Shown here piece after piece: positions 3,430 through 64,000 of a DNA stretch of 64,000 nt. Source of the stretch: Shigella phage ESh20. Every line of letters starts with the position of its first letter. Position 1 is the stretch's first letter. A program made the position numbers and the translations under genes. Location: the sequence record ON528730; one strand, 5' to 3'. Below the pieces are notes generated by a model, which was given only the letters and a program-made list of their open reading frames with translations, was not told the origin of the DNA and ran no database searches.

Positions 3430-3659
3430 TAAGCCTCCTTATCTTCAAACAACTTTTGTTGAGACTCAATATAGTCCATTCGTTCTTTGAGTTCAACACG
3501 TTTGCTTAACAGATGTTGAATTTGTGATTCCAGAGCATCCATCTCAGCTTCTGTAGCTGACTTAGCTTTACTGATAGTTTCCTTCAGTGCTGCTACGCCA
3601 CTCTGGATTTTAGAAACATGGTCATTTTTGATTTTATTAAACATTTTAAACTCTCTCAT
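3429..3659 (-). CDS. Hypothetical coiled-coil protein (76 aa)
   Basis: ORF track; start overlaps upstream stop. Confidence 0.45.
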   Translation of the reverse strand: MREFKMFNKIKNDHVSKIQSGVAALKETISKAKSATEAEMDALESQIQHLLSKRVELKERMDYIESQQKLFEDKEA

Positions 3660-6322: not shown

Positions 6323-6600
6323 GAATCTCTCCGATATATTTCATATTCAAAATGTTTATTAGTCAAGGTAAAGATGTAAACTGTAGATAAACCATCAATC
6401 GCTAATGCAAACTGCTCAACATTATCTTTTGATAAGTGCTCAAACTTTACTTCATGTCCCTTGTTGATGAGTACTTTACCGAACTGCTCTATCTTAGTCA
6501 AGCACTCTTTTACAAATTTTTTTCTACTTTCTTCTGAATAGAAGGGTTCAAAACCCTCCTTCAGATAACTATCAATCAGTTTCGAACGGACAGTCATCAT
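6319..6600 (-). CDS. Hypothetical protein (93 aa)
   Basis: ORF track. Confidence 0.5.
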   Translation of the reverse strand: MMTVRSKLIDSYLKEGFEPFYSEESRKKFVKECLTKIEQFGKVLINKGHEVKFEHLSKDNVEQFALAIDGLSTVYIFTLTNKHFEYEIYRRDS

Positions 6601-10352: not shown

Positions 10353-10776
10353 CTTTAATCTCTCTCATTTTGTTAATAGTAAGTCGTGACAATCTTAAGC
10401 TTTCTTGTGAAGAGAAGTCAAGTCCTTTTTCAGACCGTGGGAAGTAATTTCTGTCCCAAGTATTCTCTGCATCCTGAAGCAGTTGGGATAGACTATCTAA
10501 GTCCGTTCCATTTTGCAACTTATTTTTTAAGGTATCTATCAAAAAGATTGTGTCTTTCGCTTTACGTCTTTCTGAAGATATCTCTTTCATGTGCTCAAAT
10601 ACAGAACACTTTAAACCTTCGTCGTATCCACTTGATAGTTCTATCTCATGCTGAACATCAACCATTCGACGATGTTGATAAGCATACTCCTTCTGAGCCT
10701 CGATGTAAAGTGCTTCAACTCTTTCTAAAGCTTGGACAAGGTTATTGATATCTGGGTGAACGTACATCCTCTGCAT
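10336..10776 (-). CDS. Hypothetical protein (146 aa)
   Basis: ORF track; first gene of minus-strand block. Confidence 0.5.
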   Translation of the reverse strand: MQRMYVHPDINNLVQALERVEALYIEAQKEYAYQHRRMVDVQHEIELSSGYDEGLKCSVFEHMKEISSERRKAKDTIFLIDTLKNKLQNGTDLDSLSQLLQDAENTWDRNYFPRSEKGLDFSSQESLRLSRLTINKMREIKDENCK

Positions 10777-11035
10777 GATTGCCTCTGTTAAGTATCTATA
10801 AAGATTTTAATCTCTTATCTTTATGTATGTTATACATATAACTTTAAAGCTTTTTAAAAGCTATTAAAAATCTTTTAAGACTTTTAAAGAAACTGTATAG
10901 TTAATCTATAAAGGGAGTCTATTAAGATAAAACCCACTTCGAAAAGACTAACACCTTGTCAAGTAGTTTGTCAACTTGCTTTTTGAAGAAAATTGCTGTA
11001 GGGTATTATCCAGAATGATTTGAGAGGGAGTAAAA
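10777..11035. promoter_or_regulatory. Divergent AT-rich control region between minus-strand and plus-strand early blocks
   Basis: 260 bp non-coding; 7-bp inverted repeat TATGTAT-gtt-ATACATA (10822-10838); TTGTCAAG...TTGTCAAC repeats (10956-10978); TATTAT -10-like at 11004-11009; RBS GAGGGAG before ATG 11036. Confidence 0.45.
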
Positions 11036-15037: not shown

Positions 15038-15289
15038 GTGAGCAATAAAGAGCAAGAAGCTTTAGCAATCTTCAAGAGCGAAGACAAATCAATAGCTTTT
15101 GTCTCAGAGGCTTGGTGCAGGGATTTGGGGTATGATTGGTATATCTTCTTATGCGCTAAGAAAGATGTTAAACCAGTTGATGAAACCCGATTCAAAGAAC
15201 TGTATAATATCTGCCAAGAGGGTTATGAAGAACATTACGAAGGTTCTTTGAATCCTGTAAATTCAAAAGCTTCAGATTTATTTTATTGA
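15038..15289 (+). CDS. Hypothetical protein (83 aa), GTG start
   Basis: ORF track. Confidence 0.45.
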   Translation: MSNKEQEALAIFKSEDKSIAFVSEAWCRDLGYDWYIFLCAKKDVKPVDETRFKELYNICQEGYEEHYEGSLNPVNSKASDLFY

Positions 15290-15299
15290 GAGGTTTGAA

Positions 15300-15545
15300 A
15301 TGTTAAAATTATTGATACCAGCTTTAGTAGTCCTACTGGTTGGATGTAACCCTTCTTATGAGAATAAGGATGCTTCTTACAGACTTCCTCCAGAAATGCA
15401 AGACTGCAAGATTTATAAACTTAATGGTGATGCCATTAGCAGGGATGTTATTGTAGTTCGCTGCCCAAATTCTCAGACGACAACTTCTTACAAGTATGGG
15501 AAGAATAGTCAGTCACACACCACAGTTTTTGATGGGGGATATTAA
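15300..15545 (+). CDS. Putative small lipoprotein
   Basis: Signal peptide with lipobox MLKLLIPALVVLLVGC. Confidence 0.55.
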   Translation: MLKLLIPALVVLLVGCNPSYENKDASYRLPPEMQDCKIYKLNGDAISRDVIVVRCPNSQTTTSYKYGKNSQSHTTVFDGGY

Positions 15546-15546
15546 T

Positions 15547-15753
15547 ATGCAGGTTCTGGTAAACTTTATCTATAAGTATGAAAACATCTTCAGCACTATG
15601 ACTGTAGCTCAACGCAATCCAGTTATTCCACGAGAAGGGGAGACTGTTGGGATTAATGATTGGAACTACAGAGTTGAAGAGGTCAAGCATAAACTTAAAG
15701 ATGGTTATGACCACCAAGTTGTAAATGTGTATTTAAAAGGTAAGTGGCAATGA
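15547..15753 (+). CDS. Hypothetical protein (68 aa)
   Basis: Start moved to ATG 15547 to avoid overlap with lipoprotein gene; ATGA overlap downstream. Confidence 0.4.
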   Translation: MQVLVNFIYKYENIFSTMTVAQRNPVIPREGETVGINDWNYRVEEVKHKLKDGYDHQVVNVYLKGKWQ

Positions 15754-16283
15754 GTGAAAAAAGGTTATTCAAAGAGTCCTACAGTAATCTGAAGATGGGT
15801 TATCAAGGCTACTCAATACCTTGGTATGAAGATAAGAAAAAACAGTATTCAAACCCTTTTATATATCAACCTGTAAAACTCTCTGTACTGGAGTTTTGGC
15901 ATGAAACTGGAGCTACGCCATACCAATTTGACAACATGGAATATGCGCGTATTTGTAAAAGTCTTGGTGCAAGACAAGTTGATAATATCATTGAACATTT
16001 GAAGGATTTGTATAAAGATTTTGCTGGATACTTATACGAGAAACAGTTTGGGGAGTGCTTAAAATACCCAGATGGGTCACTTGTTCTGCTCTCATACATG
16101 TCTAATGGTAACATAAAAATTGCATACAAAGACCTGTGTGATAACTACTATGATTTTTATACTAGATTGAGACTACCATACCCAGATAGCTCCTTTTCCT
16201 TATCTAGCAATGCAATGACGCACTCTGGGAATATTGTTTCTGTTGAAAAATTAAAAAAGACGTGGGAGAAGAAAAATAAATGA
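15750..16283 (+). CDS. Hypothetical protein (about 177 aa)
   Basis: ORF track (ATG at 15750 preferred over GTG 15744). Confidence 0.5.
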   Translation: MSEKRLFKESYSNLKMGYQGYSIPWYEDKKKQYSNPFIYQPVKLSVLEFWHETGATPYQFDNMEYARICKSLGARQVDNIIEHLKDLYKDFAGYLYEKQFGECLKYPDGSLVLLSYMSNGNIKIAYKDLCDNYYDFYTRLRLPYPDSSFSLSSNAMTHSGNIVSVEKLKKTWEKKNK

Positions 16284-41584: not shown

Positions 41585-42084
41585 TAATTAAACCTTACTT
41601 TTTGTTTAAGGATTGTTGAATGGTTACCAGATTCATCTACCACATTTACAATCATATCATAAACTTTACCTTTGACAAGTACTTTGTAATCATTTTGTGA
41701 AAAAATGTACTCAAGTCTGTTAGACTCTTTATTTACTGTCATTGGAGATTGAAATGCTGTATCAATGGTAATGAATGCAGCTTCAACACTATTAACGTTA
41801 ACACGTTTATTCTCACAGTTATATAACTTTACACCCAAAAGGCATGAACTGTCAAATGGAATTTTAACAATTTCGTTACAATTGTTTGAAATAAACTGTT
41901 TTCCGTTCATTGGAGCATCAAGTAACCTGCAAATAGTGAAAACGTCAGAGGTTCCACCATCACTAACATACCCTGAAAGGCTGACCCTTGAGCCAGCCTC
42001 TACAGTTAATTCATCAGTGATAATTAAGACACCCCTATAAGAATGCACTCGCGTAGCATTGGAAATAGAGATAACTTCTGCCAT
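41584..42084 (-). CDS. Hypothetical head protein (166 aa)
   Basis: ORF track. Confidence 0.4.
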   Translation of the reverse strand: MAEVISISNATRVHSYRGVLIITDELTVEAGSRVSLSGYVSDGGTSDVFTICRLLDAPMNGKQFISNNCNEIVKIPFDSSCLLGVKLYNCENKRVNVNSVEAAFITIDTAFQSPMTVNKESNRLEYIFSQNDYKVLVKGKVYDMIVNVVDESGNHSTILKQKVRFN

Positions 42085-43550
42085 TATTTGTTTGCCTTAT
42101 TAGCTGTACTTGGGTCTCTAGCTGAAGGAGTATTAGCAGTCCCTTCTCCAGCAGTTTTATAACCATCACCAGAACGACTTTGAGTGTTTGGAGATAGTTT
42201 CTCAGATACTGGTTTAGACTCATCAGCAGGTTCAAGGTCAAGATATTCTCTAAGCTTGTCAGACAATGGCTTGTCAACTTCCAGAGCACCAACTGCAACT
42301 GTTTTCTGAATGAATGATGCAATAGCTTCAAGGTCTGGTGTCTCAATATCATCATACACAATTTCTACGTGTTCTTCATCATCCCACATATTTAGTGCAT
42401 AAGTCTGAGCAACCAAATCACGGTTAATTACATTCTTCACTTGCTTCAGAAGAATATCAACTGACATTGCCAGTAAGCTTGTCTTAGAATCTGCCAGAGA
42501 GAATGAGCCATACTTTGACTGTCCCATAGCAAGAACATCAGACATAAACGCCATCATAATCTGCTTAGAGTATCTATCAATGATAGAACCTGTATCATAA
42601 GCTTTAGCACCCTGTCGAGAAACTAATGAGAACTCAAAGATATCTTCTTTAGTTTCTGGGTCGATAAATCTAGGCCAAATTAAACCTGCTCTGTCATTAG
42701 CAATTAAATCATTTACTACTTCTTGGCAGTATTTAACAAAAGCTTTCTTTTCAGGTTCTGCATCTTCACCTAAGTAATCAGGTGGAAGACCAATCTTTGG
42801 CATACCTACTAAGTCTCTGGAAACACCAACTGCTTCAAACTCTTCAATTTGAACTTTGTATTTCCAAGGAACATAAGCATTAAGCAATGGTGAACGTCCC
42901 TCTGGGTTTCCGTATTCATCATCATACTTGAACAATAAGAATTTACTTCTAGGAAGCTTTCTTGTCAATGGCTGTTCACCAAGATTAATTGCTCCTGCAA
43001 TATGGGAAACATTACGCAGGTTCTGTCTAACACCAATAACTTTTCTATAGTCAGAGTCAAAGTACCATTTGTCTAATGTAGTCTGATTACGGATTGGTAA
43101 TTTAGCCCAACCAATTAAACCATCATTATATTTTGAAGGGTACTTACCTTTCTTACCTTGACGTTTCTTATAAACTTTCTCGTTTACACAGAAACCGTAA
43201 GTACAGAATGACATTACAGAGTTAATAAAGTCAGCCCAATCGTGCTCCATGTCATTCATTAGTGAGTTAAAGAAATTAGCCCTTTCAATCATTTTGGCAT
43301 CTTTCTCTTTTCCCTTCGGTGGTACGAATCTCCAGTTAACCTTTCTGACAAACATCTTAATAATATTTACAGAGGCTGCTACTGAAGGGTCTCTCATCAT
43401 AAGTTGGAAAGTCTTAATACTTTCTGGGAATCTTAAAGCCTGTCTAGGTTCTTCATAGATTCTTCCTGAGCGAACTTTAAGGCCAAGACTCCCAACCTCA
43501 CCCATTCTGAATGGAGGAAGGCTTTCTTGTGTTTCTGTGATATCTGCCAT
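42084..43550 (-). CDS. Portal protein
   Basis: 488 aa immediately downstream of large terminase. Confidence 0.6.
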   Translation of the reverse strand: MADITETQESLPPFRMGEVGSLGLKVRSGRIYEEPRQALRFPESIKTFQLMMRDPSVAASVNIIKMFVRKVNWRFVPPKGKEKDAKMIERANFFNSLMNDMEHDWADFINSVMSFCTYGFCVNEKVYKKRQGKKGKYPSKYNDGLIGWAKLPIRNQTTLDKWYFDSDYRKVIGVRQNLRNVSHIAGAINLGEQPLTRKLPRSKFLLFKYDDEYGNPEGRSPLLNAYVPWKYKVQIEEFEAVGVSRDLVGMPKIGLPPDYLGEDAEPEKKAFVKYCQEVVNDLIANDRAGLIWPRFIDPETKEDIFEFSLVSRQGAKAYDTGSIIDRYSKQIMMAFMSDVLAMGQSKYGSFSLADSKTSLLAMSVDILLKQVKNVINRDLVAQTYALNMWDDEEHVEIVYDDIETPDLEAIASFIQKTVAVGALEVDKPLSDKLREYLDLEPADESKPVSEKLSPNTQSRSGDGYKTAGEGTANTPSARDPSTANKANK

Positions 43551-43562
43551 TCTTTCTACCTA

Positions 43563-45179
43563 TTAGCGTCTTAGCCCCTGATATGGATTACTCTTCATAA
43601 TATCTGTATGAGCACCCATTGAAGGTGGCTTGAATAGTTTAACTTCGTTTAGACTGTTGAAAGCATCACTGGTAGCATCCACTTGGTCATCCTTAGTACG
43701 ACCATCACCACAAAAACCTTCTAGTTCTTGGAAATATGCTTCATTCCAAGAGCCTCTAACAATTTTGACAAGTCCTGCCTCAGAAGCAGCAGAGAAACCC
43801 GCAAAACGGGTGACTTTATCTTTATTTGTTGGTTTAGCTCTTGCTCGGAAACCTTTCTCAGCAAGTTTTCTAATAAGGGAGGTTGCGTAGGATTTACCAG
43901 CAGCGCCGGGGTCTTGAGGGATAAAAATACCTGTGCGCTTACCATCACCTTCAGCAGTTTGGTTAATTTGTGTTTCAACTCCAGAAGGTCTATCTCTAAA
44001 TCTTACTACGTTAATCACATAATAGCAACCATCTTTTTTAGATTTACCCATTTTAACACCTGCTGTCCAGTCAGGGTTAGGGTTAACCTCAGAAGGTAAT
44101 GTTGCTGCTAAGTCCCATGCTCTTACGTCAAATACGTCTGCTGGAACACTATCAACAATTTCACACCATTGCCTTTGCCAGTAGTTTGAACCTTCAGCAC
44201 GAGCTTTCCAGTTACCAAAACGTAAACGTGCAACGTTAACTGGTGTGTTGTTTTCTAATTTACCACGATACTTAGGTTCAAGGAAATCTAGAATAGGGTT
44301 GTCATCAATTGTACCGGAAATAAAGGTATATGTTTGAGGAATCTCAAGAGGGAACATTTCAAGAATTTTATCTCTATCCCAATCAGAAACCATGACACCA
44401 TCATTCATAACATACCAACGAATCCTACCGCACTTCTCTGGGTCTGGATATCCAGCATCATCTAGGAAAGGTTCTACCCAATCATAAATAAAGTGGTCTC
44501 TATCTGGGTTCATTGAGATTTTCATATATGAGTCACCTTCAGCACCAGAACGTAAACGTGTCTGAAGATATGAAATCTGTGAAGCCGAGAAGTGTGTACC
44601 TTCGTCGAAATAAATAGCTGAGTATTCGATACCTTGGTGACCTTCTGAGTGTTTCTCAAGTTCCAAATAAGTAAACTTGATAGTTGCTCCAGAAGGGAAA
44701 GTGATAGTCATTTTCTGTTCATGTGGAACTCCACCAAACTTACCAAATAACTTCTTAGCCGCAGGCCATAGACCACCTTGTAACTGTGTTGTATTTCGAC
44801 GGAAATAAACAGCATTATAGTTTGGGTCTTCAATGAACCTTAGTGAGTCCATTAATAGGGCAGCAGTCTTACCAGCACCAGCAGCACCACCATATAGTAC
44901 CAAGTCAGCATTAGTGTTCAAGAATACCTCTTGAGAGCCAGGCTGTGGAGCTACATAGTTCTTGTCAGTCATCAATTTAAAGATGAGTCTTACTTGGTCT
45001 GGGGTGTATCTTAATAAAGTCAGAATTTGAGTTGGAAGGAATTTAGAGGGGTCTTTACCAAAGGATTTGATAATATCTTTTACTTCTTCAGAAAGCCCCA
45101 ACTCACCTGCTAGGACTTTCCTTACATCTTCCACTCGCTTCTGCTTAATAACATTTAAGTCCATTAAGCACCTCTGCAA
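43563..45179 (-). CDS. Terminase large subunit
   Basis: Walker A LYGGAAGAGKT near N-terminus; size 538 aa; adjacent to portal. Confidence 0.85.
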   Translation of the reverse strand: MQRCLMDLNVIKQKRVEDVRKVLAGELGLSEEVKDIIKSFGKDPSKFLPTQILTLLRYTPDQVRLIFKLMTDKNYVAPQPGSQEVFLNTNADLVLYGGAAGAGKTAALLMDSLRFIEDPNYNAVYFRRNTTQLQGGLWPAAKKLFGKFGGVPHEQKMTITFPSGATIKFTYLELEKHSEGHQGIEYSAIYFDEGTHFSASQISYLQTRLRSGAEGDSYMKISMNPDRDHFIYDWVEPFLDDAGYPDPEKCGRIRWYVMNDGVMVSDWDRDKILEMFPLEIPQTYTFISGTIDDNPILDFLEPKYRGKLENNTPVNVARLRFGNWKARAEGSNYWQRQWCEIVDSVPADVFDVRAWDLAATLPSEVNPNPDWTAGVKMGKSKKDGCYYVINVVRFRDRPSGVETQINQTAEGDGKRTGIFIPQDPGAAGKSYATSLIRKLAEKGFRARAKPTNKDKVTRFAGFSAASEAGLVKIVRGSWNEAYFQELEGFCGDGRTKDDQVDATSDAFNSLNEVKLFKPPSMGAHTDIMKSNPYQGLRR

Positions 45180-45611: not shown

Positions 45612-45687
45612 TGGAGTATCGGAAGGGACTCGAACCCTCATAAACCTGTTTTGCAGACAGGCACATAACCATTTCTGACACCGACAC
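45612..45687 (-). tRNA. tRNA-Cys (anticodon GCA)
   Basis: Acceptor GTGTCGG/CCGATAC, discriminator U, anticodon loop CUGCAAA, T-arm GAGGG-TTCGAGT-CCCTT, CCA encoded. Confidence 0.7.
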
Positions 45688-45693
45688 ATAATT

Positions 45694-45786
45694 TGGAGGA
45701 AGATACCAGACTTGAACTGGTACGCCGATTTCTCGGTTACTGGCAGTTTAGCAAACTGCTCCCTTACCTTTTAGGGTTAATCTTCC
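45694..45786 (-). tRNA. tRNA-Ser (anticodon GCT), type II
   Basis: 7-bp acceptor, T-arm ACCAG-TTCAAGT-CTGGT, long variable arm, anticodon loop TTGCTAA, 3-bp D stem. Confidence 0.65.
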
Positions 45787-45787
45787 A

Positions 45788-46522
45788 TTATTTGTTCAGA
45801 GCTTCTTTCATCTCTGGAGTTGCGATAGTATCAATCACACCAGTTTTACATGAATCATCAAACCAGCTTGGTAGAACATTCGCAAGGAAACCATTAATAT
45901 TTGTTTTCAGGTATTCTGCAATCAGTGCTGCTTCATCTGCAATCATCTGAGTTACTTCATTAGCATATGCAGTAATCTTTGCAATACCCTCATTAATCGC
46001 TGTAACGGCCTGTGTAGCGAGTTCAGAGATTGTATCTAGTCCTTGGTCGATTGCATCTTGCAAATCGCTTAGAACGCTATTTACAGCGTCTATGGAGGTA
46101 TTAATCAAATCCATCGCTTTATTACCGTACTCGGTAGCTACGCCCATGATACCGCTAAACGGTGTACATCCAACCTGTTCACCTGCTGCCCCCATAACGT
46201 TAGAGTAACCTTTAGCCACTTGCATACGTTGTGAAAACTCATCTACAGACTTTTGTCCATACTCAGTAAGTGTACTTGTCGTTGAAGTTGTACTTCCAAG
46301 GCTTGTTGTGAAGCTTCCTAATAAGGCTGTTGTCAGTCCAGCAGCAACTAAAATCTGTTGTGTAGCTGGGTCTGTTACAGAACTAATTGAGTTAACTAAT
46401 GATTGAGAGGCAGCTATAGTACCACCAAGAACTGCTGCACCAGTAATAAGAGGGTTTGAGAAACCATTACCAGTTTTAAGGAGATTAAAAATCTCTTTAC
46501 TTTGTTCTGTCATCTCTTTCAT
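45788..46522 (-). CDS. Hypothetical protein embedded in tRNA array (about 244 aa)
   Basis: ORF track frame; start moved to ATG 46522 to avoid overlap with tRNA at 46539. Confidence 0.45.
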   Translation of the reverse strand: MKEMTEQSKEIFNLLKTGNGFSNPLITGAAVLGGTIAASQSLVNSISSVTDPATQQILVAAGLTTALLGSFTTSLGSTTSTTSTLTEYGQKSVDEFSQRMQVAKGYSNVMGAAGEQVGCTPFSGIMGVATEYGNKAMDLINTSIDAVNSVLSDLQDAIDQGLDTISELATQAVTAINEGIAKITAYANEVTQMIADEAALIAEYLKTNINGFLANVLPSWFDDSCKTGVIDTIATPEMKEALNK

Positions 46523-46538
46523 TATGCACCTATAAAGT

Positions 46539-46614
46539 TGGTAGCCCATCGGGATTTGAACCCTGTTCTCATGTTTTTCAGACACGCGCTTTAACCATAT
46601 AAGCTAATTGAGCT
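46539..46614 (-). tRNA. tRNA-like gene, tentative tRNA-Phe (anticodon GAA), imperfect T-stem
   Basis: Anticodon arm CGTGT-CTGAAAA-ACATG, T-loop TTCAAAT with only 3 clean stem pairs, acceptor pairing 6/7. Confidence 0.4.
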
Positions 46615-46621
46615 ATTAAAT

Positions 46622-46698
46622 TGGGGTGACCTACGGGAATCGAACCCGTATAGACCATGTTCACAGCATGGGTCATTATCCATTTATGATAAGGCCAC
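46622..46698 (-). tRNA. tRNA-His (anticodon GTG)
   Basis: Acceptor GTGGCCT/AGGTCAC, discriminator C, T-arm ACGGG-TTCGATT-CCCGT, anticodon loop CTGTGAA. Confidence 0.7.
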
Positions 46699-46729
46699 AT
46701 TTAAGGACTCTCGTAAGAACCCTTAGAAG

Positions 46730-46805
46730 TGGCAGCAGTATAAGGATTTGAACCTTAATCTTTCAGCTTCAGAGGCTGGAGCATTGCCAGTTATGCTATA
46801 CTGCT
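46730..46805 (-). tRNA. tRNA-Gln (anticodon CTG)
   Basis: Perfect 7-bp acceptor, T-arm TAAGG-TTCAAAT-CCTTA, anticodon loop CTCTGAA. Confidence 0.6.
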
Positions 46806-46811
46806 AATATT

Positions 46812-46890
46812 TGGTACTCCATATCGGATTCGAACCGATACATAACACAGATTTTAAATCTGGCCTCTCTGCCAATTGGAGTAATGGAGC
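46812..46890 (-). tRNA. tRNA with Leu-type anticodon TAA (tentative), short variable region
   Basis: T-arm ATCGG-TTCGAAT-CCGAT, anticodon loop TTTAAAA, Leu-like D-loop containing CCAATTGG. Confidence 0.45.
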
Positions 46891-46892
46891 AT

Positions 46893-46968
46893 TGGCGGGG
46901 GATGATGGAATTGAACCATCTTCTTCGATTTCAAAGACCGAGGTTTTAACCTTGTAAACTAATCCCCT
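46893..46968 (-). tRNA. tRNA-Gln (anticodon TTG)
   Basis: T-arm GATGG-TTCAATT-CCATC, anticodon arm TCGGT-CTTTGAA-ATCGA, A1:C72 mismatch at acceptor end. Confidence 0.55.
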
Positions 46969-47194
46969 AACGAACTCTTGAAAGAATATATGCGTTATTG
47001 CAAGTATCCTTATTTTCAGGTAGTGATGTTTCGAAGATAACTTGCTTAAGTTCTAATCCAGCAAAGTTATAAACAATCTTTCTAACTTCTAACGGGTCAC
47101 ATTGCCAACCAACCGCTATAAAGAAAGTATCTCCAAATCTACCTGTTTCAATCTTGTGGTCATCTTTATGTTTTTCAACTATGAGTTTATACAT
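46967..47194 (-). CDS. Hypothetical protein within tRNA array (75 aa)
   Basis: ORF track; fills gap between two tRNAs. Confidence 0.35.
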   Translation of the reverse strand: MYKLIVEKHKDDHKIETGRFGDTFFIAVGWQCDPLEVRKIVYNFAGLELKQVIFETSLPENKDTCNNAYILSRVR

Positions 47195-47212
47195 AATGTT
47201 ACCTATTAAATT

Positions 47213-47289
47213 TGGTGCAGAATAGAGGATTCGAACCTCTAACTAACAACTTCGTAGGTTGCTGCTCTATCCATTTGAACTAATTCTGC
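47213..47289 (-). tRNA. tRNA-Arg (anticodon ACG)
   Basis: Perfect acceptor GCAGAAT, T-arm AGAGG-TTCGAAT-CCTCT, anticodon loop CTACGAA. Confidence 0.7.
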
Positions 47290-47467
47290 AATATCCTTTT
47301 GAGATTCCTGTCTAGCTCTCTTCTTATCTCTTCTGAGAAAGCGTTTACGATGGTCTGTACGCCATTTGTAATAATCTTCTTCACCATCATGTGCTGCACA
47401 GCAGCCACAACTTGCAATTTCAACTTTACCATGTCTACCATAAGGCTTCATAGGAATCTCCTAAAAT

Positions 47468-47545
47468 TGGTGTTCCAAGACGGATTCGAACCGTCACTAA
47501 TACAAGGTTTGAGCTTGCATCCTCTGCCAATTGGGATACTGGAAC
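47468..47545 (-). tRNA. tRNA with Leu-type anticodon CAA (tentative), short variable region
   Basis: T-arm GACGG-TTCGAAT-CCGTC, anticodon arm GCAAG-CTCAAAC-CTTGT, D-loop with CCAATTGG. Confidence 0.45.
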
Positions 47546-47546
47546 T

Positions 47547-47621
47547 TGGTACTCGCTGAAGGACTTGAACCTTCTTCACCAACTTGTAAGGATGGAGCTT
47601 TACCATATAAACTAAGCGAGC
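47547..47621 (-). tRNA. tRNA-Val (anticodon TAC)
   Basis: T-arm GAAGG-TTCAAGT-CCTTC, anticodon loop CTTACAA. Confidence 0.55.
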
Positions 47622-47716
47622 TTTGAAGAGGTCTGAAGCTGTGCCGCTAACTCAACTCCGTGGAATTTGTTACGGTCTTCAGTTGACTCAAGCGGTCTTT
47701 CACTTGACCTCAAAAT

Positions 47717-47792
47717 TGGTGCTCCCACAAGGATTCGAACCCTGATAAGTTGCTTACAAGGCAACCGTAATAGCCAATTATACGATAAGAGC
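47717..47792 (-). tRNA. tRNA-Thr (anticodon TGT)
   Basis: T-loop TTCGAAT, anticodon arm GTTGC-CTTGTAA-GCAAC, acceptor with two G:U pairs. Confidence 0.55.
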
Positions 47793-47798
47793 ATTATT

Positions 47799-47873
47799 TG
47801 GAGCATCCAGAGGGAATCGAACCCTCAACCTCAGTTTGGAAGACTGTAATTTTCCCGTTTAAACTATGGATGC
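47799..47873 (-). tRNA. tRNA-Gly (anticodon TCC)
   Basis: Perfect acceptor GCATCCA, T-arm GAGGG-TTCGATT-CCCTC, anticodon loop CTTCCAA. Confidence 0.7.
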
Positions 47874-47879
47874 ACTAAT

Positions 47880-47955
47880 TGGTGGAGAAGCAGGGAATTG
47901 AACCCTGTACTTAAGTTTGCAAAACTTATGTTTTAACCATGTAAACTACATCCCC
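47880..47955 (-). tRNA. tRNA-Ala (anticodon TGC)
   Basis: T-arm CAGGG-TTCAATT-CCCTG, anticodon loop TTTGCAA, G3:U70 wobble pair characteristic of tRNA-Ala. Confidence 0.7.
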
Positions 47956-47961
47956 ATTGTT

Positions 47962-48037
47962 TGGTACAGGTGGAGGGAATTGAACCCATCATCTTACTGA
48001 TTAAGAGTCAGCCGCATAACCATTTTGCTACACCTGC
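47962..48037 (-). tRNA. tRNA-Lys (anticodon CTT), T-stem with only 3 clean pairs
   Basis: Acceptor GCAGGTG/CACCTGT, anticodon arm CTGA-CTCTTAA-TCAG, T-loop TTCAATT. Confidence 0.5.
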
Positions 48038-48043
48038 ATTAAT

Positions 48044-48120
48044 TTGGTACACCTAGAGAGATTCGAACTCACACTGAGCAGATTCTAAGTCTGCTGCCTC
48101 TTCCAATTGGGCTATAGGTG
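48044..48120 (-). tRNA. tRNA with Leu-type anticodon TAG (tentative), short variable region
   Basis: Anticodon arm GCAGA-CTTAGAA-TCTGC, 3-bp D stem with loop CAATTGGAAGA. Confidence 0.45.
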
Positions 48121-48376
48121 CATTAAATCTTTGTAGAGAACTGCTAAGACGCCAAAGCAACAATGGTATCAAATGCCTTAACAATTCTCTAAAAAGACCT
48201 ATTGGCCTTTGCATAGTCTTGCTTAATCCGGTGACTAGAACCTTTGGAGAGCTTGATACTATCTCTTCTCCGTGACACCTACTAGGTGCTTTACCAGTGC
48301 CGTGTACGCCAATACACGAAGAGGAAACCTGAAACACTTGCTCGAACAAATAGTCTCAGCTTTAAATCTTATTAGG

Positions 48377-48464
48377 CGGTAGATAAAGGAGTCGAACCCT
48401 CACCGTATCTCTACAATGGCAATAGTTTTCAAGACTATTTGGCTTCCATTAGCCGCTACCTACC
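48377..48464 (-). tRNA. tRNA-Ser (anticodon TGA), type II, CCA not encoded
   Basis: T-loop TTCGACT, long variable region, anticodon arm ATAGT-CTTGAAA-ACTAT, acceptor GGTAGGT/ATCTACC. Confidence 0.5.
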
Positions 48465-48477
48465 CCTAATAAGACTT

Positions 48478-48560
48478 TGGCATGGGACGGAGGATTCGAA
48501 CCCCTTTGAGTAAGTTTTGGAGGCTTACGCACATGCCTTAGTGTCTTAACATCGTCCCAT
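48478..48560 (-). tRNA. tRNA-Trp (anticodon CCA), enlarged D region
   Basis: Perfect 7-bp acceptor ATGGGAC/GTCCCAT, T-loop TTCGAAT, anticodon loop CTCCAAA, about 8 extra nt in D region. Confidence 0.5.
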
Positions 48561-48724
48561 ACTATATTTCGAAGCTTACCCTGTTATCTCAACACTGTCA
48601 AGCTTCTTCTCAGATTATTTACATGTTCTGGAAAACATGAGATACAGACCACCTCCTTATGAGATTGACTCTTTCAAGTCAATGCGGAGACCCATAAAGG
48701 TCGTCATAGTAATCTGCTAACTAA

Positions 48725-48843
48725 TTGGCAGTCAAGGTAGGAGTCGAACCTACTTACTATTAAAGGGAGCTACCCTTCAGCAACTATCCGACTTTCGTTT
48801 ATCTCTTAACGCGTATCCAAGATAACTTACTCGTGTTGTCTTG
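48725..48843 (-). ncRNA. tRNA-like element with about 40-nt internal insertion (not a canonical tRNA)
   Basis: CCA-rc and 7-bp acceptor AGTCAAG paired with CTTGACC 119 nt apart; canonical T-arm GTAGG-TTCGACT-CCTAC; no canonical anticodon arm identified. Confidence 0.4.
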
Positions 48844-48854
48844 ACCATTAAAAT

Positions 48855-48931
48855 TGGCACACCCTACAGGATTCGAACCTGTAACTGACGGTTTAGAAGA
48901 CCGTTGCTCTATCCGTTTGAACTAAGGGTGC
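48855..48931 (-). tRNA. tRNA-Arg (anticodon TCT)
   Basis: T-arm ACAGG-TTCGAAT-CCTGT, anticodon arm ACGGT-CTTCTAA-ACCGT. Confidence 0.7.
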
Positions 48932-49178
48932 ATTATCTTTAAAGGCTCTCTTAGAAAACCCTTAAAGATGCCCACTTTATTAATCATACCGTGGGCTAGT
49001 ACGCCAAATTCTTTAACAGGGAGTTGGAATACCCTGCTGGTGTTTAGCCTATTAAGCTACTGCCAGAAAAACATTATCGTTTGCATTTATTTTTAAGTTT
49101 TTAAAATAGACGCTACGCTAACGAAAACTAAGGTTATCTTAAAGTGGTCACATCTGAATGTCAACAACTTTATGAAAT

Positions 49179-49254
49179 TTGGTACTGGTAGGTGGAATCG
49201 AACCACCGATATTCCCTTATCAGGGGAGTGTTATAACCTTCTTAACTATACCAG
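49179..49254 (-). tRNA. tRNA-Ile (anticodon GAT)
   Basis: T-arm GGTGG-TTCGATT-CCACC, anticodon loop CTGATAA. Confidence 0.65.
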
Positions 49255-49256
49255 CA

Positions 49257-49333
49257 TTGGAGGTTCAGGTGGGAATCAAACCCACATTCATAGGGCTTAT
49301 GAAACCCTTGCATTACCTTATCTGCGACTGAAC
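49257..49333 (-). tRNA. tRNA-Met (anticodon CAT), elongator-type (G1:C72 paired)
   Basis: Perfect acceptor GGTTCAG, T-arm GTGGG-TTTGATT-CCCAC, anticodon loop TTCATAA. Confidence 0.6.
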
Positions 49334-49415
49334 CATTATAAGTTGCCCCTTTGTAGAGAACTGATTGAGTGGGTGTTTCCAGCCGCGCATGTGTTCTTCA
49401 GTTAAGGGGCGAATT

Positions 49416-49491
49416 TGGTAGAAGTGGAGGGATTCGAACCCGTCGCCTGTCAGATTAAAAGTCTGCCGCATCACCATTCTGCTACACTTCC
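49416..49491 (-). tRNA. tRNA-Lys (anticodon TTT), same T-stem pattern as Lys(CTT)
   Basis: Anticodon arm CAGA-CTTTTAA-TCTG, T-loop TTCGAAT with 3 G:C pairs. Confidence 0.5.
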
Positions 49492-49914
49492 ATTAAATCA
49501 TCTTTGCAGTAACCTACGCAAACCTTGCTAAAGGGTTTGTAGAGTCATCTCTTATAAGCTAATCTAGAATCATGCTCAAGAGACTCTTCGGCACTCATGG
49601 GACGACTGGTTAGCTCCATAAGTCACTGCAAAGAGGATTACCAGACCGTATTTATCTTAAGTGCTTCCATTACACCAACACGCCGTAACGTGTGAAGGAA
49701 TCGAACCTTCGCCTTTTCTTTATAAGAGAAATAGATTGTTTATTGTTTGCTGTAAACGGTCTTCTGTAAAATTGTTGGAACCAGACCAAGTTTTAAATTT
49801 TTCAAATTAAATTGGCTTGAAATATTAAAATTGCTTGCTGTATTTGGTCTTCTGCTCCTTTAAAGAATACTCGTAAGAACTCTTTAAGGGAGGGGCTAAA
49901 AAGCCCTCTCAAAT

Positions 49915-49991
49915 TTGGCGGTTACGAAGGGATTCGAACCCTCATCATCCTCCGTGACAGGGAGGTATTTTGACCAGTTAAACTACATAAC
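49915..49991 (-). tRNA. tRNA-Asp (anticodon GTC)
   Basis: T-loop TTCGAAT, anticodon arm CCTCC-CTGTCAC-GGAGG. Confidence 0.7.
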
Positions 49992-49997
49992 CTTTAT

Positions 49998-50085
49998 TTG
50001 GTGCGCCGTGAAGGAGTCGAACCTCCCGAGTCATAATGACAAGTGATTTACAGTCACCACCGCTTCCATCTACGGGATAACGACG
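49998..50085 (-). tRNA. tRNA-Tyr (anticodon GTA), type II
   Basis: T-loop TTCGACT, long variable arm hairpin, anticodon loop CTGTAAA, 3-bp D stem. Confidence 0.6.
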
Positions 50086-50154
50086 CATTTTATTCTATTC
50101 AGGCTAAGGACTTGCACCTTACAAATCGGTGAGCAATCGCTTCTCTCCCAAATC

Positions 50155-50231
50155 TTGGCGGTTAGTCAGGGATTCGAACCCTGTACCATTCGGTTAACAG
50201 CCGACCGCACATGCCTTATGTGCTTCCTAAC
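50155..50231 (-). tRNA. tRNA-Asn (anticodon GTT)
   Basis: T-arm CAGGG-TTCGAAT-CCCTG, anticodon arm TCGG-CTGTTAA-CCGA. Confidence 0.65.
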
Positions 50232-50315
50232 CATGTTAGTATTACCAGACCGTATCTTTTCATTTTTTGCCTATAAAAAATTTTAAGTGTTTGCTGTAAA
50301 CGGCCTTCTGTAAAT

Positions 50316-50392
50316 TTGGAGGCGGGTGTAGGAGTCGAACCTACCGATAACATGCTAATGAGACATGTGAGACACCCTTTCTCTATACCCGC
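50316..50392 (-). tRNA. tRNA with CAT anticodon and unpaired position 1:72 (initiator-like or Ile2-like)
   Basis: T-arm GTAGG-TTCGACT-CCTAC, anticodon loop CTCATTA closed by T:G pair, U1:C72 mismatch. Confidence 0.5.
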
Positions 50393-50479
50393 AATTCTTA
50401 ATGACCAGACCAAATCTTTTTTGGATTTCTATGCGCGAAATTGAAAAGTTTGTTTGCTGTAATTGGTCTTCTGTCAAAA

Positions 50480-50557
50480 CTGGCATTCCCGAAGGGACTT
50501 GAACCCTCAAACCACACCTTGAAAGGGTGTTGACTTTACCTAATTTGTCTACGGGAA
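50480..50557 (-). tRNA. tRNA-Glu (anticodon TTC)
   Basis: Perfect acceptor CGGGAAT/ATTCCCG, T-loop TTCAAGT, anticodon arm ACACC-CTTTCAA-GGTGT. Confidence 0.7.
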
Positions 50558-50563
50558 TATAAT

Positions 50564-50643
50564 TTGGTCTCCGTTGAAGGATTTGAACCTTCGACCCCTT
50601 GCTCCCAAAGCAAGTGCTGCTAAACCAAACTGAGCTAAACGGA
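50564..50643 (-). tRNA. tRNA-Pro (anticodon TGG)
   Basis: Perfect acceptor, T-arm GAAGG-TTCAAAT-CCTTC, anticodon arm CTTGC-TTTGGGA-GCAAG. Confidence 0.7.
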
Positions 50644-50775
50644 GATAATCTTTTTAACAACCTATGTAACAACTATAACACTATTTTTTAGTGTCTGTCA
50701 AGAGGTTTTTTAAAATAATTTGATTTATTTCAGAAAACTTCTTTTTCGTTTCTATGTAGAACATATTAAAGGGTA

Positions 50776-59545: not shown

Positions 59546-59839
59546 ATGAGTTTAAATTTGAAAGAAGGTCAGAAGGTTGTTATTGTTGACTACGACACAA
59601 AAAGCCTATTAACAAAAGGTGTGGTTACTGATATTGGTTCATCAGGAAATTACCCTATTGGTGTTAAAATTGATGAACCCTTTGTAATAGGTTCTGATGA
59701 CAAAGATGAGTTGTCTTTTCTCACAGGTGAGAGACTAACTTTCAACGGAGAATACCTATACCGTGGACATGTACATGAAGACCACAAGAAATGGGATTTA
59801 GAAGTGTTATCCGAAGAATACTATAACAAAAATTATTGA
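59546..59839 (+). CDS. Hypothetical protein (97 aa)
   Basis: ORF track. Confidence 0.5.
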   Translation: MSLNLKEGQKVVIVDYDTKSLLTKGVVTDIGSSGNYPIGVKIDEPFVIGSDDKDELSFLTGERLTFNGEYLYRGHVHEDHKKWDLEVLSEEYYNKNY

Positions 59840-59848
59840 GGCAAAACT

Positions 59849-60145
59849 ATGACTCCACAATCCAGAGGTGTTAAAGGTATCCACCCTCCAAAGGGTGGTT
59901 GGAAAGATAACACTTTCTACATCGTTGAAGTTGCTTACAAGCCACTTAACATGATTCATAAAGCGATGTTCTACACAGGGTTCTGTGATGATAATGGTGT
60001 ACCTGCTGGTTACAACTGGCTTATGAATGGTGGTTATGAAGAACTTTGCAATATTCAAGAAGCTTATTACTTGAAAGCTATTGCAGAGTTACCTGATGAG
60101 TTTCAAATTGAGAGAGATGAGGATTGGAAAGATGAAGAATGTTAA
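59849..60145 (+). CDS. Hypothetical protein (98 aa)
   Basis: ORF track. Confidence 0.5.
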   Translation: MTPQSRGVKGIHPPKGGWKDNTFYIVEVAYKPLNMIHKAMFYTGFCDDNGVPAGYNWLMNGGYEELCNIQEAYYLKAIAELPDEFQIERDEDWKDEEC

Positions 60146-60566
60146 AGAGACAGTACGCAAAGCTATGCTTAACAATGGTACTAAAGATGATATGTATAAA
60201 GATATCGTCGAAGACCTTGGTTGTTCAAGACATGCTGCAAAGGTTCTTCTTCATAGCTTTATCTGGGAGTGTTCAGAAGCTTACATGCAATCTGTAATAA
60301 CTGAAGGGCTTGATATGTCTCTACCTGAACGCTTCAAAGAAGAGACTAAGGCTAGTTCCATAAAGCTAAACACACTCTATATTGTAGAAACCGTTGATAC
60401 AGGTGAACCAGTAGGCACAATACATATTGAAAGTATGTGTGATGGTAAGTTCCTTGGTTATGGTGAAGCAAACGCATATAGTGCATTCTCAACCGCACAC
60501 TGGATAGTTGAAAATGATGGGTATATTCAGGTCAATGGTAAAAATACTTTCAAACTTAAGATGTGA
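60132..60566 (+). CDS. Hypothetical protein (about 144 aa)
   Basis: ORF track frame; start set to ATG 60132. Confidence 0.45.
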   Translation: MKNVKETVRKAMLNNGTKDDMYKDIVEDLGCSRHAAKVLLHSFIWECSEAYMQSVITEGLDMSLPERFKEETKASSIKLNTLYIVETVDTGEPVGTIHIESMCDGKFLGYGEANAYSAFSTAHWIVENDGYIQVNGKNTFKLKM

Positions 60567-61234
60567 TTATGGGACACCTACTGAAGAAGAGTTGGAAGAA
60601 CTTAACAGATATGGTTCCCCATCTGAAGAGGGAGAGAAAGAACTCAGAAGAATGGGAAGCAATTACTAAGAAATGTTTTAAGGATTTGATAGAGATGAAA
60701 AAGTTTGAACTTGAAAGAAAGTATCTGGTACTTAGCCTAGATGATATCAACACACATCTTGACGAAAGTGAGAAGTGGTCTTTAGACTTACTTGTTAATC
60801 GACTTAAGATGGAACGAGAAGATTCAGGTAAAGAGCCACTTGAAGGTGTCTTTGTCAAGAAGTCTTATCCGTTCTATGAAGATACTTTGAAGAAACTTGA
60901 GATGTATGTTAAGCAGCAGAACCGTAAAGAGTTCTCTATGATTTCTCTTGGTGGACAACAAATGCTGGTTATGGAAGATATAAACCCTAAGAGAACCAAC
61001 AAAGGTGTTTGTATCAAGGTCACAGGTAAAGAAGAATTTGTTGAATATGACATACTCAGACACATTATAGATGGTTTGGGTGTTGTACTGAACATGAATG
61101 AATACCATATTAGTTCACACCCGATTAAGGGTGACCAGATAATGATTCAGGTAAGAGAACGTCATAATGGGTTCACACACTTCTTCCAGACTTCTAAAAC
61201 TTCATTGCAAACTATGCTTAGTGAAGTGATGTAA
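60563..61234 (+). CDS. Hypothetical protein (223 aa)
   Basis: ORF track. Confidence 0.5.
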   Translation: MIMGHLLKKSWKNLTDMVPHLKRERKNSEEWEAITKKCFKDLIEMKKFELERKYLVLSLDDINTHLDESEKWSLDLLVNRLKMEREDSGKEPLEGVFVKKSYPFYEDTLKKLEMYVKQQNRKEFSMISLGGQQMLVMEDINPKRTNKGVCIKVTGKEEFVEYDILRHIIDGLGVVLNMNEYHISSHPIKGDQIMIQVRERHNGFTHFFQTSKTSLQTMLSEVM

Positions 61235-61242
61235 AACTATAC

Positions 61243-61267
61243 AGCCCCTTAATTGGGGCTTTTTATT
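61243..61267 (+). terminator. Rho-independent terminator ending the plus-strand block
   Basis: AGCCCC-ttaatt-GGGGCT followed by TTTTTATT. Confidence 0.7.
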
Positions 61268-61269
61268 GA

Positions 61270-62842
61270 GTAAAATTTACGAAATTTATAATTTTTATAA
61301 AATTTGGGATTCACTCCGTTCATCTTGGGTCACCATGATATGTGATAAAATATCTATACCCTTCTAAACACCCTCTCTAAGCATCATCTCTATATAGTAT
61401 TATATAGTATCTATATAGCCTCTTAGTCCCTAAATAGTGCTCTCTATATAGCCCTCTATAAAGCCTTCTAAGCCTCCCATTAATCAACCCTATACAATCA
61501 CCTTCCTAACCTCTTCCTAGCCCCTTAGGAGCCCCTATACTCATCTTAATCTCTAGGTAAACGATAGTACCCTATATAGCAGAATCACTAGGTATTACTA
61601 AGCCTCTATATAGACTGTTATATAACACTAAACAGGTATTCCCTGTAAAGGCTTATCCTACAAGGTCTAACACGGCACTAACAAGGTCTCTTATAAGCCT
61701 GTTAATTCCTGTTTTATATAAGATAGTGTATAGATAGTTATTCAGAATTATAAAATTTTTATAAAATAGACTAGGTAGTGTTTATTTAGGGGTCTTTGGA
61801 GAATCTGAAAAATATCTACTTAGGATGTATATCTGCTTGGTAGCCCTTAACAGCCCTGTAACATCCCCTTTGCAAAATCTTAAAATATCATTAACAATCT
61901 CTTAACAACTCTCCCAAGCTCTTAACATCTCTTCAAAGTTCTTAACAGTCTCTTAACAGAACTAACAAGAGCTTAACAAGTCTGTAACATTGCTTACAAG
62001 AGTCTAACAAGTTGCTTATAAGTTGCTAAATAGTTAAATCTTAAGAGTTATTTTGTTAAGATAATTAACAAGATGCTAACAAGTTCTAAACCTTTTTAAC
62101 AAGCTATTAACATGGTCACAGTGGTTGTTTACAAACACAACTTCTCTTGGTCTATAGCTCCCTATGCTTCTTAGTGATTCTCTATAAAGCCCTCTTAAAA
62201 GCTCTGTATAGCTCTGTATAGCCTCTTCTAAGGTTCTCCCTAGTAACTACACCCCAACTACCTGTATAGCTCTTTATAGGGCTTTCTAGGGGCTTATACA
62301 GGGACTTCAAAGAGTCTAACAAGCTTTTAACATACCACTAACAAGGATTTAACAAGGGGCTAACAAGTCTCTAATAAGCATAACTATGTAGCATTTGTTA
62401 AGATTTTGTTAAGAGAATGTAAAGGGGGCTAACTTTTACGTTACTTTTACGTTACTTTTACGTTACTTTTACGTTACTTTTACGTTACTTTTAAGCTCTT
62501 TTTAGTTCCCCATAACACATTACTAAGTAACTAGCAAGCCCCCTGTTTAACTATTCACAAGATTCTATCCAGCTTATAAGCTTATACCCTTATAAGATTC
62601 TTTTAAGGCTCTGGAAAGCTCTATAAAGGGCTTTTAAGAGTAGGTTAATATGATTGCTTAAGATGAGATGATAAGCCCGTATAGAGCGTTATAGAGCGTT
62701 TTAGGGATTGCCCTTCCCTTTCGGGTTATGGGCTTATATTTAAGTTGATTTGATAAGAGGATATAGAGTAAGCTATAGAGTTATTGTTCTAAATGTATGA
62801 GATAGATTCTATCGAATCAATGGTAAGATTCTAGGAAGACGT
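61270..62842. repeat. Repeat-dense non-coding region (candidate origin / packaging region)
   Basis: About 1.6 kb without long ORFs; recurring CTATATAG, CTCTATAAAGCC, TTAACA and CTAACAAG motifs, AT-rich near-palindromes, tandem 11-mers. Confidence 0.6.
62432..62493. repeat. Tandem repeat, 11-bp unit ACTTTTACGTT x about 5.6
   Basis: Read directly: aacttttacgttacttttacgttacttttacgttacttttacgttacttttaa. Confidence 0.85.
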
Positions 62843-62864
62843 AAAAAAGCCCCATCTAAGGGGC
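62843..62864 (-). terminator. Rho-independent terminator (minus strand)
   Basis: Minus strand GCCCC-ttagat-GGGGC followed by TTTTTT, downstream of gene ending at 62907. Confidence 0.65.
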
Positions 62865-62906
62865 TGTAAAGGTGTCTGGGGCTATTTGCCCCGTTGCGGC
62901 GACTTG

Positions 62907-63158
62907 TTAGTTATTGAAGCCGTCAACTTCATAGTAAAGCGTGATAAGAGAATCACCCCAATAGTAAGAGGATTTGCCATCCTTTAAGACTTCTTGTTTT
63001 ACTTCTTTCCAGAACCACTCAGATTGATTGTAGTCCTGAATAGTTGCTTTTAGACACATATCAACCATGCCAAAAACATCGCCAGTTCCAACCATATCAA
63101 ATTTAACATCTAATACATGGAAGCCAAAATTGTTAACAGTTGCGTGGATAGTAGCCAT
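62907..63158 (-). CDS. Hypothetical protein (83 aa)
   Basis: ORF track. Confidence 0.5.
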   Translation of the reverse strand: MATIHATVNNFGFHVLDVKFDMVGTGDVFGMVDMCLKATIQDYNQSEWFWKEVKQEVLKDGKSSYYWGDSLITLYYEVDGFNN

Positions 63159-63164
63159 TTTCAG

Positions 63165-63230
63165 ATTCTCCAGTTTAGGAATTTAGGTTAGTGGGGAAGT
63201 CTCCCTCCCCGTTGAAAGTAATATTAATTC
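63165..63230 (-). promoter_or_regulatory. Conserved intergenic element, copy 1
   Basis: Shares TCTCCAGTTTAGGA...GGGGAAG.TC..CCTCCCCGTTGA.AAGTA with copy 2; contains hairpin-forming GGGGAAG/CCTCCCC. Confidence 0.45.
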
Positions 63231-63487
63231 ATTGCTGCATAAGTTGCAAGTCTTTTTTCATTGTATTTTGTAAGAATCTCACAAGATAAAACGTCATATT
63301 TTGCAACGGCTTCAGATTTAGTTAAACCAAAATGGCTTACAATTTCACCATTCATGAATCCGACTACTTCATAAGATTCTGCGATGATTTCACCGTTGAA
63401 CCAATCACTTTCAATACGTTTGCAAAGTTGGATATCTTCTTTGTCAGTACCGATTTGTAACAGGATAGTGATTTCTTGATTATTCAT
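63224..63487 (-). CDS. Hypothetical protein (87 aa)
   Basis: ORF track. Confidence 0.5.
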   Translation of the reverse strand: MNNQEITILLQIGTDKEDIQLCKRIESDWFNGEIIAESYEVVGFMNGEIVSHFGLTKSEAVAKYDVLSCEILTKYNEKRLATYAAMN

Positions 63488-63494
63488 TTTCTAG

Positions 63495-63560
63495 TCTCCA
63501 GTTTAGGATTGTTGGGGAAGGTCATTCCCTCCCCGTTGATAAGTACTTTATAGATTTGTG
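63495..63560 (-). promoter_or_regulatory. Conserved intergenic element, copy 2
   Basis: Same motif set as copy 1, in the equivalent position upstream of the next minus-strand gene. Confidence 0.45.
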
Positions 63561-63898
63561 ATGATTTCGTCAAGGGAATTTTCTAAGTTTTTTAAAGATT
63601 GTTCGTAAAGCCTAATTCCCCTATTTAATGCTTCCCCTAACGTAATTTTAAAATTAGTTGTTGGGTAGTCACTTGTAAAGATGTTTTCCACTTCATAGAG
63701 TGGGTATTGTTGGTTACCCGTTCCCATAGCATACATCCCTGTATAATGGATTGCAATAAAAAGATTATGGGACTTAATAGAGCGCTCATAAGCCATTTTA
63801 AAGCGGTTTAACTCGTTTTTAGTTGCCTTAATAGCCATTTCGTGAATTTCTGCGACTATAGCCATATAATCATTCAGAATGAGAGAAATAGCCCCCAT
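63548..63898 (-). CDS. Hypothetical protein (116 aa or longer; frame stays open upstream to window edge)
   Basis: ORF track; the 102 nt upstream of ATG 63898 are in-frame without a stop. Confidence 0.45.
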   Translation of the reverse strand: MGAISLILNDYMAIVAEIHEMAIKATKNELNRFKMAYERSIKSHNLFIAIHYTGMYAMGTGNQQYPLYEVENIFTSDYPTTNFKITLGEALNRGIRLYEQSLKNLENSLDEIITNL

Positions 63899-64000
63899 AA
63901 AGTTGTTAGCTGTTACCGCTTTTACATTTGGTCGGTGTACATAAAACTTCTTATCTTCCCCTTTTGTGATAACTGCAAAAACTTTGCTCTTTAAGGTAAA

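Follow-up and report, generated by a model that had tools for sequence, protein, structure and literature searches.

The chromosome ends of Felix O1-like phages have been described in a number of studies. In the genome paper of Felix O1, short terminal repeats were inferred and no small terminase subunit was found (PMC3185647). The ends of UAB_Phi87, also Felix O1-like, were determined by Bardina et al. using Bal31 digestion and run-off sequencing, giving a direct terminal repeat (DTR) of 608 bp (PMC4837284), while PhageTerm has reported DTRs for phage D4 (PMC11737134) and a DTR of 581 bp for the Felixounavirus Pr103Blw (PMC8303462). The terminal repeats of this group are already known, having been mapped experimentally in 2016, and the region described here is the homologous region in another member. 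These published accounts present the repeat as a length or as a sequence, and phased arrays, inverted ends and a conservation above that of the neighbouring genes are not described in them. Outside of this group, phage T7 possesses a short, exact and non-permuted DTR (160 bp), and in this it resembles the locus analyzed here.

The DNA analyzed (the window) is a stretch of 64,000 nucleotides of Shigella phage ESh20 (ON528730), a Mooglevirus (Ounavirinae, Felix O1-like). It carries 26 tRNA genes on the minus strand (45612-50644), which is typical of Felix O1-like phages, and the presence of DNA polymerase A (11036-13735, plus strand) and of a primase-helicase (6572-8563, minus strand) also fits this group. 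The interval of interest (61270-62842, 1573 bp) very probably constitutes the genome terminus and concatemer junction region of a phage with short, exact, non-permuted DTRs, in which the sequence at 61839-62429 would be found once at each chromosome end. The region is most probably of a known kind, a packaging region, and less probably a replication origin. It is homologous to the DTRs of UAB_Phi87, Pr103Blw, D4 and Erwinia phage M7 (444 bp), with which it has boundary boxes, TTAACA content and a position between convergent terminators in common. It differs from these in belonging to a phage of another genus, in having its ends placed by homology and in a private expansion of an 11-bp repeat.

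The sequences closest to the region are those of Shigella phages Sf13-Sf19 (~94%), and with the Citrobacter phages Michonne and Mordin (Mooglevirus) included these range from 90 to 94%. More than 200 Ounavirinae genomes contain the region almost in full, with approximately 200 Felixounavirus genomes at 73-80% identity. An alignment across relatives, as proposed in the preliminary description, was made with 24 sequences and revealed most of the repeat motif copies and both boundary boxes to reach at least 95% conservation among the more distant relatives, with no shared ORF of at least 40 aa. Between Mooglevirus and Felixounavirus, three sub-regions of the interval are 80-100% alignable at 71-82% identity, compared with 21-47% alignable for the neighbouring genes (three loci with full flanks). 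As the interval aligns better between these genera than its neighbouring genes do, the alignment indicates that the whole 1.6 kb, and not the DTR alone, is under selection as DNA. The small genes on either side (59546-61234 and 62907-64000) show little conservation between Mooglevirus and Felixounavirus, and their only PHROGs matches are to families without an assigned function. These clusters near the ends seem to be accessory regions that evolve rapidly and are transcribed outward towards the termini.

ORFs within the interval do not exceed 46 aa. Among the 24 aligned relatives no ORF of at least 40 aa is conserved and 11 lack any such ORF, which bears out the earlier statement that no credible ORF lies here. 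The two bracketing terminators of the preliminary description are likewise present, facing inward and each followed by a T run. The left operon is ended by a rho-independent terminator on the plus strand (61243-61267, hairpin 61243-61260) with a 6-bp G+C stem, and the right operon by one on the minus strand (62843-62865, hairpin 62865-62848). Short coding sequences have been annotated in the homologous interval of other phages in GenBank, namely one in Michonne (CPT_Michonne111, 66 aa, 4366-4566 of the extracted locus), three in ESh19 (3202-3993 of the extracted locus) and one in D4 (CDS0001, 45 aa, 1033-1170 of the extracted locus). On the strength of such "hypothetical protein" annotations it could be argued that small proteins or a structured RNA are encoded here, but this is extremely improbable given that no ORF of at least 40 aa is common to the 24 relatives, that the terminators face inward and that promoters are not in excess. 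An Rfam scan of 60500-63500 at E<=1 also returned no match within 61270-62842, and a structured RNA in the interval was ruled out on this basis. As none of the annotated sequences is conserved as an ORF across the relatives compared, they are probably spurious and a result of over-annotation.

The position of the terminal repeat was identified through relatives. Several GenBank records among the distant BLAST matches begin or end inside the homologous interval, and both ends were fetched for four of these, all Felixounavirus and from independent submissions. A repeat 100% identical at both record ends was found in each: 581 bp in D4 (PP886228), 579 bp in CRP22 (OQ708377), 613 bp in SPJ41 (ON868915) and 592 bp in ECP2307 (PP461118). 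All eight record ends map to positions 61839 and 62429 of the window, placing the boundaries at 61838^61839 and 62429^62430 (with ^ marking the boundary), and this coincidence holds despite two of the four records having been deposited in the opposite orientation. The ends of these relatives are fixed, with independent genomes terminating at the same bases (eight ends, four submissions). The left junction of the window is nearly identical to that of the four records (...GATGTATATCTGCTT^GGTAGCCCTTAACA...), while the right junction reads ...TGTTAAGGGGGC^TAGCATTTACGT... in the records and ...TGTAAAGGGGGC^TAACTTTTACGT... in the window. Across all aligned relatives, the boxes spanning these boundaries differ very little from those of the window. 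The left-boundary box (ATGTATATCTGCTT^GGTAGCCCTTAACAG, 61825-61853) has the same junction in the four DTR-bearing records and in other relatives, and the right-boundary box (TTGTTAAGATTTTGTTAAGAGAATGTAAAGGGGGC^TA, 62395-62431) was placed by the record ends and by the mapping of UAB_Phi87. From this we infer that the ESh20 phage cuts at the same bases as its relatives. The window itself carries a single copy of 61839-62429.

The experimentally determined ends of UAB_Phi87 are in close agreement with this. Its DTR sequence, taken from supplementary file 4 of PMC4837284, is located at 15150-15757 of JN225449 (608 bp) and corresponds to 61837-62420/1 of the window. The run-off boundaries are therefore 2 nt from those of the record ends on the left (61836^61837) and 8 nt on the right, where they lie further in. 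SpeI end fragments of ~4431 and ~2751 bp were predicted for UAB_Phi87 and those printed are 4322 and 2819 bp (PMC4837284). This identifies the same SpeI interval with sizes that are 2-3% off, giving weak support, and the supplementary DTR sequence is the stronger anchor. The printed genome size of 87,669 bp and the Bal31-sensitive SpeI fragments of this phage do not tally with the deposited 87,603 bp plus a repeat of 608 bp (locus examined: JN225449 13014-19582), a discrepancy which may arise from a different sequence version or way of counting. With record ends and experiment both placing the DTR on the block of TTAACA and CTAACAAG repeats, the pac or terminal region that had been put forward earlier as an alternative for this interval is strongly supported.

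All of these anchors are from Felixounavirus or Kolesnikvirus, and no records opened at the DTR were found among those of Mooglevirus. The "repeat_region" features of Danish phage records were considered as termini and rejected, as they mark small tandem repeats only. OP902294, considered as Mooglevirus KMM2 with a DTR, is instead an unrelated Staphylococcus phage.

The Kolesnikvirus anchor is Erwinia phage M7 (NC_041978), whose DTR of 444 bp is present at both ends of the record. It possesses 13 copies of TTAACA, which switch from forward in its left half to inverted orientation in its right half, and likewise sits in a gene-free zone, with boundary motifs related to those of the window (left ...GTATATCTAC^, right ...AATGTAAAAGTGGCTAA^). 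On its right flank another phased motif (CTTAGAAG or TTAGAAG, ~12-16 copies at a spacing of ~11 bp) replaces CTATAAAG and CTATATAG. This exchange of the flank motif suggests lineage-specific co-evolution with a binding factor, since cis sites evolving together with the protein that binds them would be expected to keep their layout while the flank motif differs between lineages.

The repeats themselves were then compared with the rest of the window. CTATATAG, earlier reported as a palindromic 8-mer occurring at least five times in 61390-61615, is found at 61390, 61411, 61444, 61572 and 61606, as against a single copy in the remaining 62 kb (five observed, 0.04 expected at the frequency of the remaining window). 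For TAACAAG the region has 11 copies with 0.11 expected on the same basis, and TAACA has 24 plus-strand copies in the interval with 2.9 expected. Nineteen of these 24 are located inside 61839-62429, between 61848 and 62361, in keeping with the "more than a dozen" iteron-like TTAACA repeats noted previously at 61880-62360. Motifs of the CTCTATAAAGCC type are positioned at 61454, 62180 and 62619; two of the sites originally listed (about 61455 and 62620) agree with these, while the third, given as 62171, was ~9 nt off. The AT-rich near-palindromes assigned to 61289-61305 and 61747-61768 were recovered as ATTTTTATAAAAT, which occurs at 61291 and 61755 and nowhere else in the window. Direct repeats that had also been pointed out are present as tandems, CTGTATAGCT in 2.3 copies (62200-62222) and TATAGAGCGT in 2.5 copies (62680-62704).

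These families merge into one class, CTNNNNAG with an AT-rich centre, which has 47 copies in 1573 bp (30 per kb) compared with 4.2 per kb elsewhere in the window; equal-sized background windows have a mean of 6.5 copies (sd 2.8, maximum 15). Of its 46 successive spacings, 19 measure 10-12 bp; under random placement 3.1 +/- 1.7 would do so, and a count of 19 was not reached in any of 20000 simulations. Nearest-neighbour spacing was used here in place of Fourier periodicity. The long-range Fourier signal of TA steps gave peaks only at about the maximum of the background windows, being weak because phase is not kept over the whole region. As both the enrichment and the 10-12 bp spacing exceed background and simulation, the repeats of the interval are real, non-random and phased with the DNA helix.

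The layout of the region can be followed from left to right, all of its elements being unstranded except for the 11-bp array, which is assigned to the plus strand. The left flank (61270-61838), holding the five CTATATAG copies and related CTNNNNAG motifs, is unique sequence adjoining the DTR and in the orientation of the window lies just inside the right-end DTR copy of the virion chromosome. Most of its motifs are at least 95% conserved in Felixounavirus relatives and the flank is 96-97% alignable between the genera. It contains two conserved AT-rich elements, each with a copy of ATTTTTATAAAAT: the first (61281-61305) is among the AT-richest 40-mers and the second (61745-61768) is situated ~70 bp outside the left DTR boundary. 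The DTR equivalent follows (61839-62429, 591 bp), assigned by its homology to the record-end and experimental DTRs of relatives. Its TTAACA and CTAACAAG repeats are phased at 10-11 bp and run forward over most of the block, with inverted copies (TGTTAA) near the right boundary. The outermost 80 nt at either end of the repeat match each other imperfectly in inverted orientation; the end-to-end inverted alignment scores are 29-42 for the window, D4 and M7, compared to a shuffle mean of 14.5 (sd 2.6). The right flank (62430-62842), with CTTATAAG, CTATAAAG and TATAGAGCGT, is unique sequence adjoining the left-end DTR copy and is mostly at least 95% conserved over 62558-62795.

Within the right flank, starting 2 nt outside the right DTR boundary, is the 11-bp tandem array recognized at the outset (62432-62493), consisting of ACTTTTACGTT in 5.6 copies at 100% identity. 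At the same place relatives carry a degenerate array of 3-5 ACTTT-NNNNNN units with at most one exact unit, one such unit being present in Sf13, Michonne and ESh19. As relatives have no more than this, the comparison indicates that the five perfect copies are private to the ESh20 phage and represent a recent expansion, which looks like the product of slippage beside the inferred right cut site.

The lead interpretation of the preliminary description had been an iteron-type replication origin. Under this reading the region is, or also holds, an origin at which an initiator binds TTAACA and CTAACAAG and the adjacent AT-rich elements melt. The many direct repeats, the two conserved segments of ~90% A+T (61272-61311 and 61729-61768) and the strong conservation of a non-coding interval count in favour of such an origin. 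In the T7 record, furthermore, position 405 close to the left end is annotated as the promoter phiOL. A secondary origin activity has been linked to phiOL, so that a terminal region can in principle host an origin. A resemblance to iteron-plus-DUE origins (lambda ori, plasmid oriV types) is also evident in the multiple direct repeats near AT-rich segments. However, those origins have iterons of 17-22 bp, whereas the window has 6-8 bp cores at helical spacing, and unlike them the window has no adjacent initiator gene and no enrichment of DnaA or IHF sites, and its repeat block coincides with a DTR.

The searches for origin components returned nothing specific. No significant initiator or DNA-binding domain was found with Pfam in the eight flanking genes, whose ORFs gave one sub-threshold match to DUF2663 and PHROGs matches only to families of unknown function. 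The 1.6 kb has two DnaA-box-like sites, a density no different from the 1.25 per kb of the window at large, and no IHF core site. Sigma-70-like sites number 7 with 10.2 expected, so that promoter-like sites are not in excess either. Cumulative GC skew, a check suggested at the outset and carried out over the window, has a local maximum at the interval, between the convergent operons, and its minimum at ~10-11 kb, close to the genes for the primase-helicase and the DNA polymerase, and does not favour an origin in the interval. As GC skew in phages largely follows transcription, this pattern is weak evidence on the question. The repeat block matches the mapped DTR to within 2-8 nt, and since a coincident terminal repeat already explains the conservation, an origin is not needed to account for it. 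An origin at this locus is thus considered unlikely, and the earlier lead reading did not receive specific support.

The suggestion of a promoter array, also made previously, was rejected on the count of sigma-70-like sites given above. Elsewhere in the window, the skew minimum and a sign change fall at ~10000-11100, between the divergent primase-helicase (6572-8563) and DNA polymerase A (11036-13735) genes. This is a more origin-like location than 61270-62842, although confounded by the direction of transcription.

Returning to the terminus and packaging reading, the large terminase subunit TerL is encoded at 43563-45179 on the minus strand (Terminase_6N, 5.7e-42; Terminase_6C, 2e-32), 16-18 kb from the DTR region and adjoining the portal gene (42084-43550). 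The phylogeny of TerL was found to be compatible with a DTR strategy for UAB_Phi87 (PMC4837284). On replicating concatemers TerL would cut sequence-specifically at the two conserved boundary boxes, which would serve as cleavage and recognition sites, the left cut being ...TATCTGCTT^GGTAGCCC... and the right cut ...AAGGGGGC^TAAC.... The repeat between the cuts would be duplicated such that each virion carries a copy at both ends, as in DTR packaging of the T7 type; this route of duplication is proposed by analogy. The phased 8-bp motifs (TTAACA and CTNNNNAG, every 10-12 bp) that fill the repeat and both flanks are probably protein-binding scaffolds. A putative sequence-specific protein, for which a small-terminase equivalent or another phage factor is a candidate, would bind them to mark the junction and position the cuts.

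When the T7 left end was checked directly, motifs of the CCTAAAG or CTTAAAG type were found to recur every ~11-13 bp, both in the 160 bp repeat and directly interior to it. These CTAAAG-type arrays parallel the CTNNNNAG arrays of the window in being short, A/T-centred motifs within and beside a DTR. There is no sequence homology between the two regions, the window DTR is ~3.7 times longer and its gene-free zone extends over ~1.6 kb. The early promoters of T7 read inward from the left end, whereas the operons flanking the window DTR are convergent. The terminase of the window is of the Terminase_6 type, and a small subunit was not identified in the Felix O1-like group (PMC3185647). In an insertion screen of T7, most loci near the genome ends tolerated insertion, except positions 142 and 162 by the repeat boundary (bioRxiv 10.1101/2024.10.10.617714). 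By analogy, it is the sequence close to the repeat boundary that seems critical in both T7 and the window phage, and since T7 tolerates most end insertions away from that boundary, the arrays of the window may be individually dispensable. The main text of the PhageMaP paper on Bas63 (Felixounavirus) is without data on the homologous interval.

A role other than packaging was also considered for the arrays, in which they control DNA entry, as does the injection stop in the left repeat of T5, or handle the ends through protection or tethering. They lie no more than a few hundred bp from either physical end and are phased and conserved, and the terminal repeat of T5 contains a gene-free stop signal rich in repeats and palindromes. 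For the Felix O1-like phages, however, no report of two-step injection was found, and the arrays are symmetric at both ends with the ends of the DTR being inverted copies, an arrangement more readily reconciled with recognition at the two cut sites than with an entry signal on one side. We regard this role as very unlikely.

A broader proposal, of low probability, can also be made, that the 1.6 kb forms one conserved nucleoprotein "end-organising centre". Its ~47 helically phased CTNNNNAG and TTAACA sites would be bound by a putative sequence-specific phage protein, the missing small-terminase equivalent of the Ounavirinae, with a specificity that co-evolves with the flank motif. The flank motifs would accordingly be CTATATAG and CTATAAAG in Escherichia, Shigella, Salmonella and Citrobacter phages and TTAGAAG in Erwinia phages, and such a centre might also serve replication initiation or the protection of ends.

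With 61839-62429 recognized as the terminal repeat, the phage chromosome can be given its true start and end, and the breaks or doubled coverage seen at this point in assemblies of the group are accounted for. The region provides a well-conserved and easily mutated cis element in a group of phages widely used for biocontrol and typing, and for which neither a small terminase subunit nor a packaging signal has been defined. Its phased arrays, which have a parallel in those at the ends of T7, lend themselves well to studying how DTR phages recognize and duplicate their ends.

The two terminators bracketing the interval were also observed to constitute a 28-nt inverted repeat (61237-61264 and 62844-62871) that is 89% complementary, the terminal region thus being framed by near-identical hairpins.
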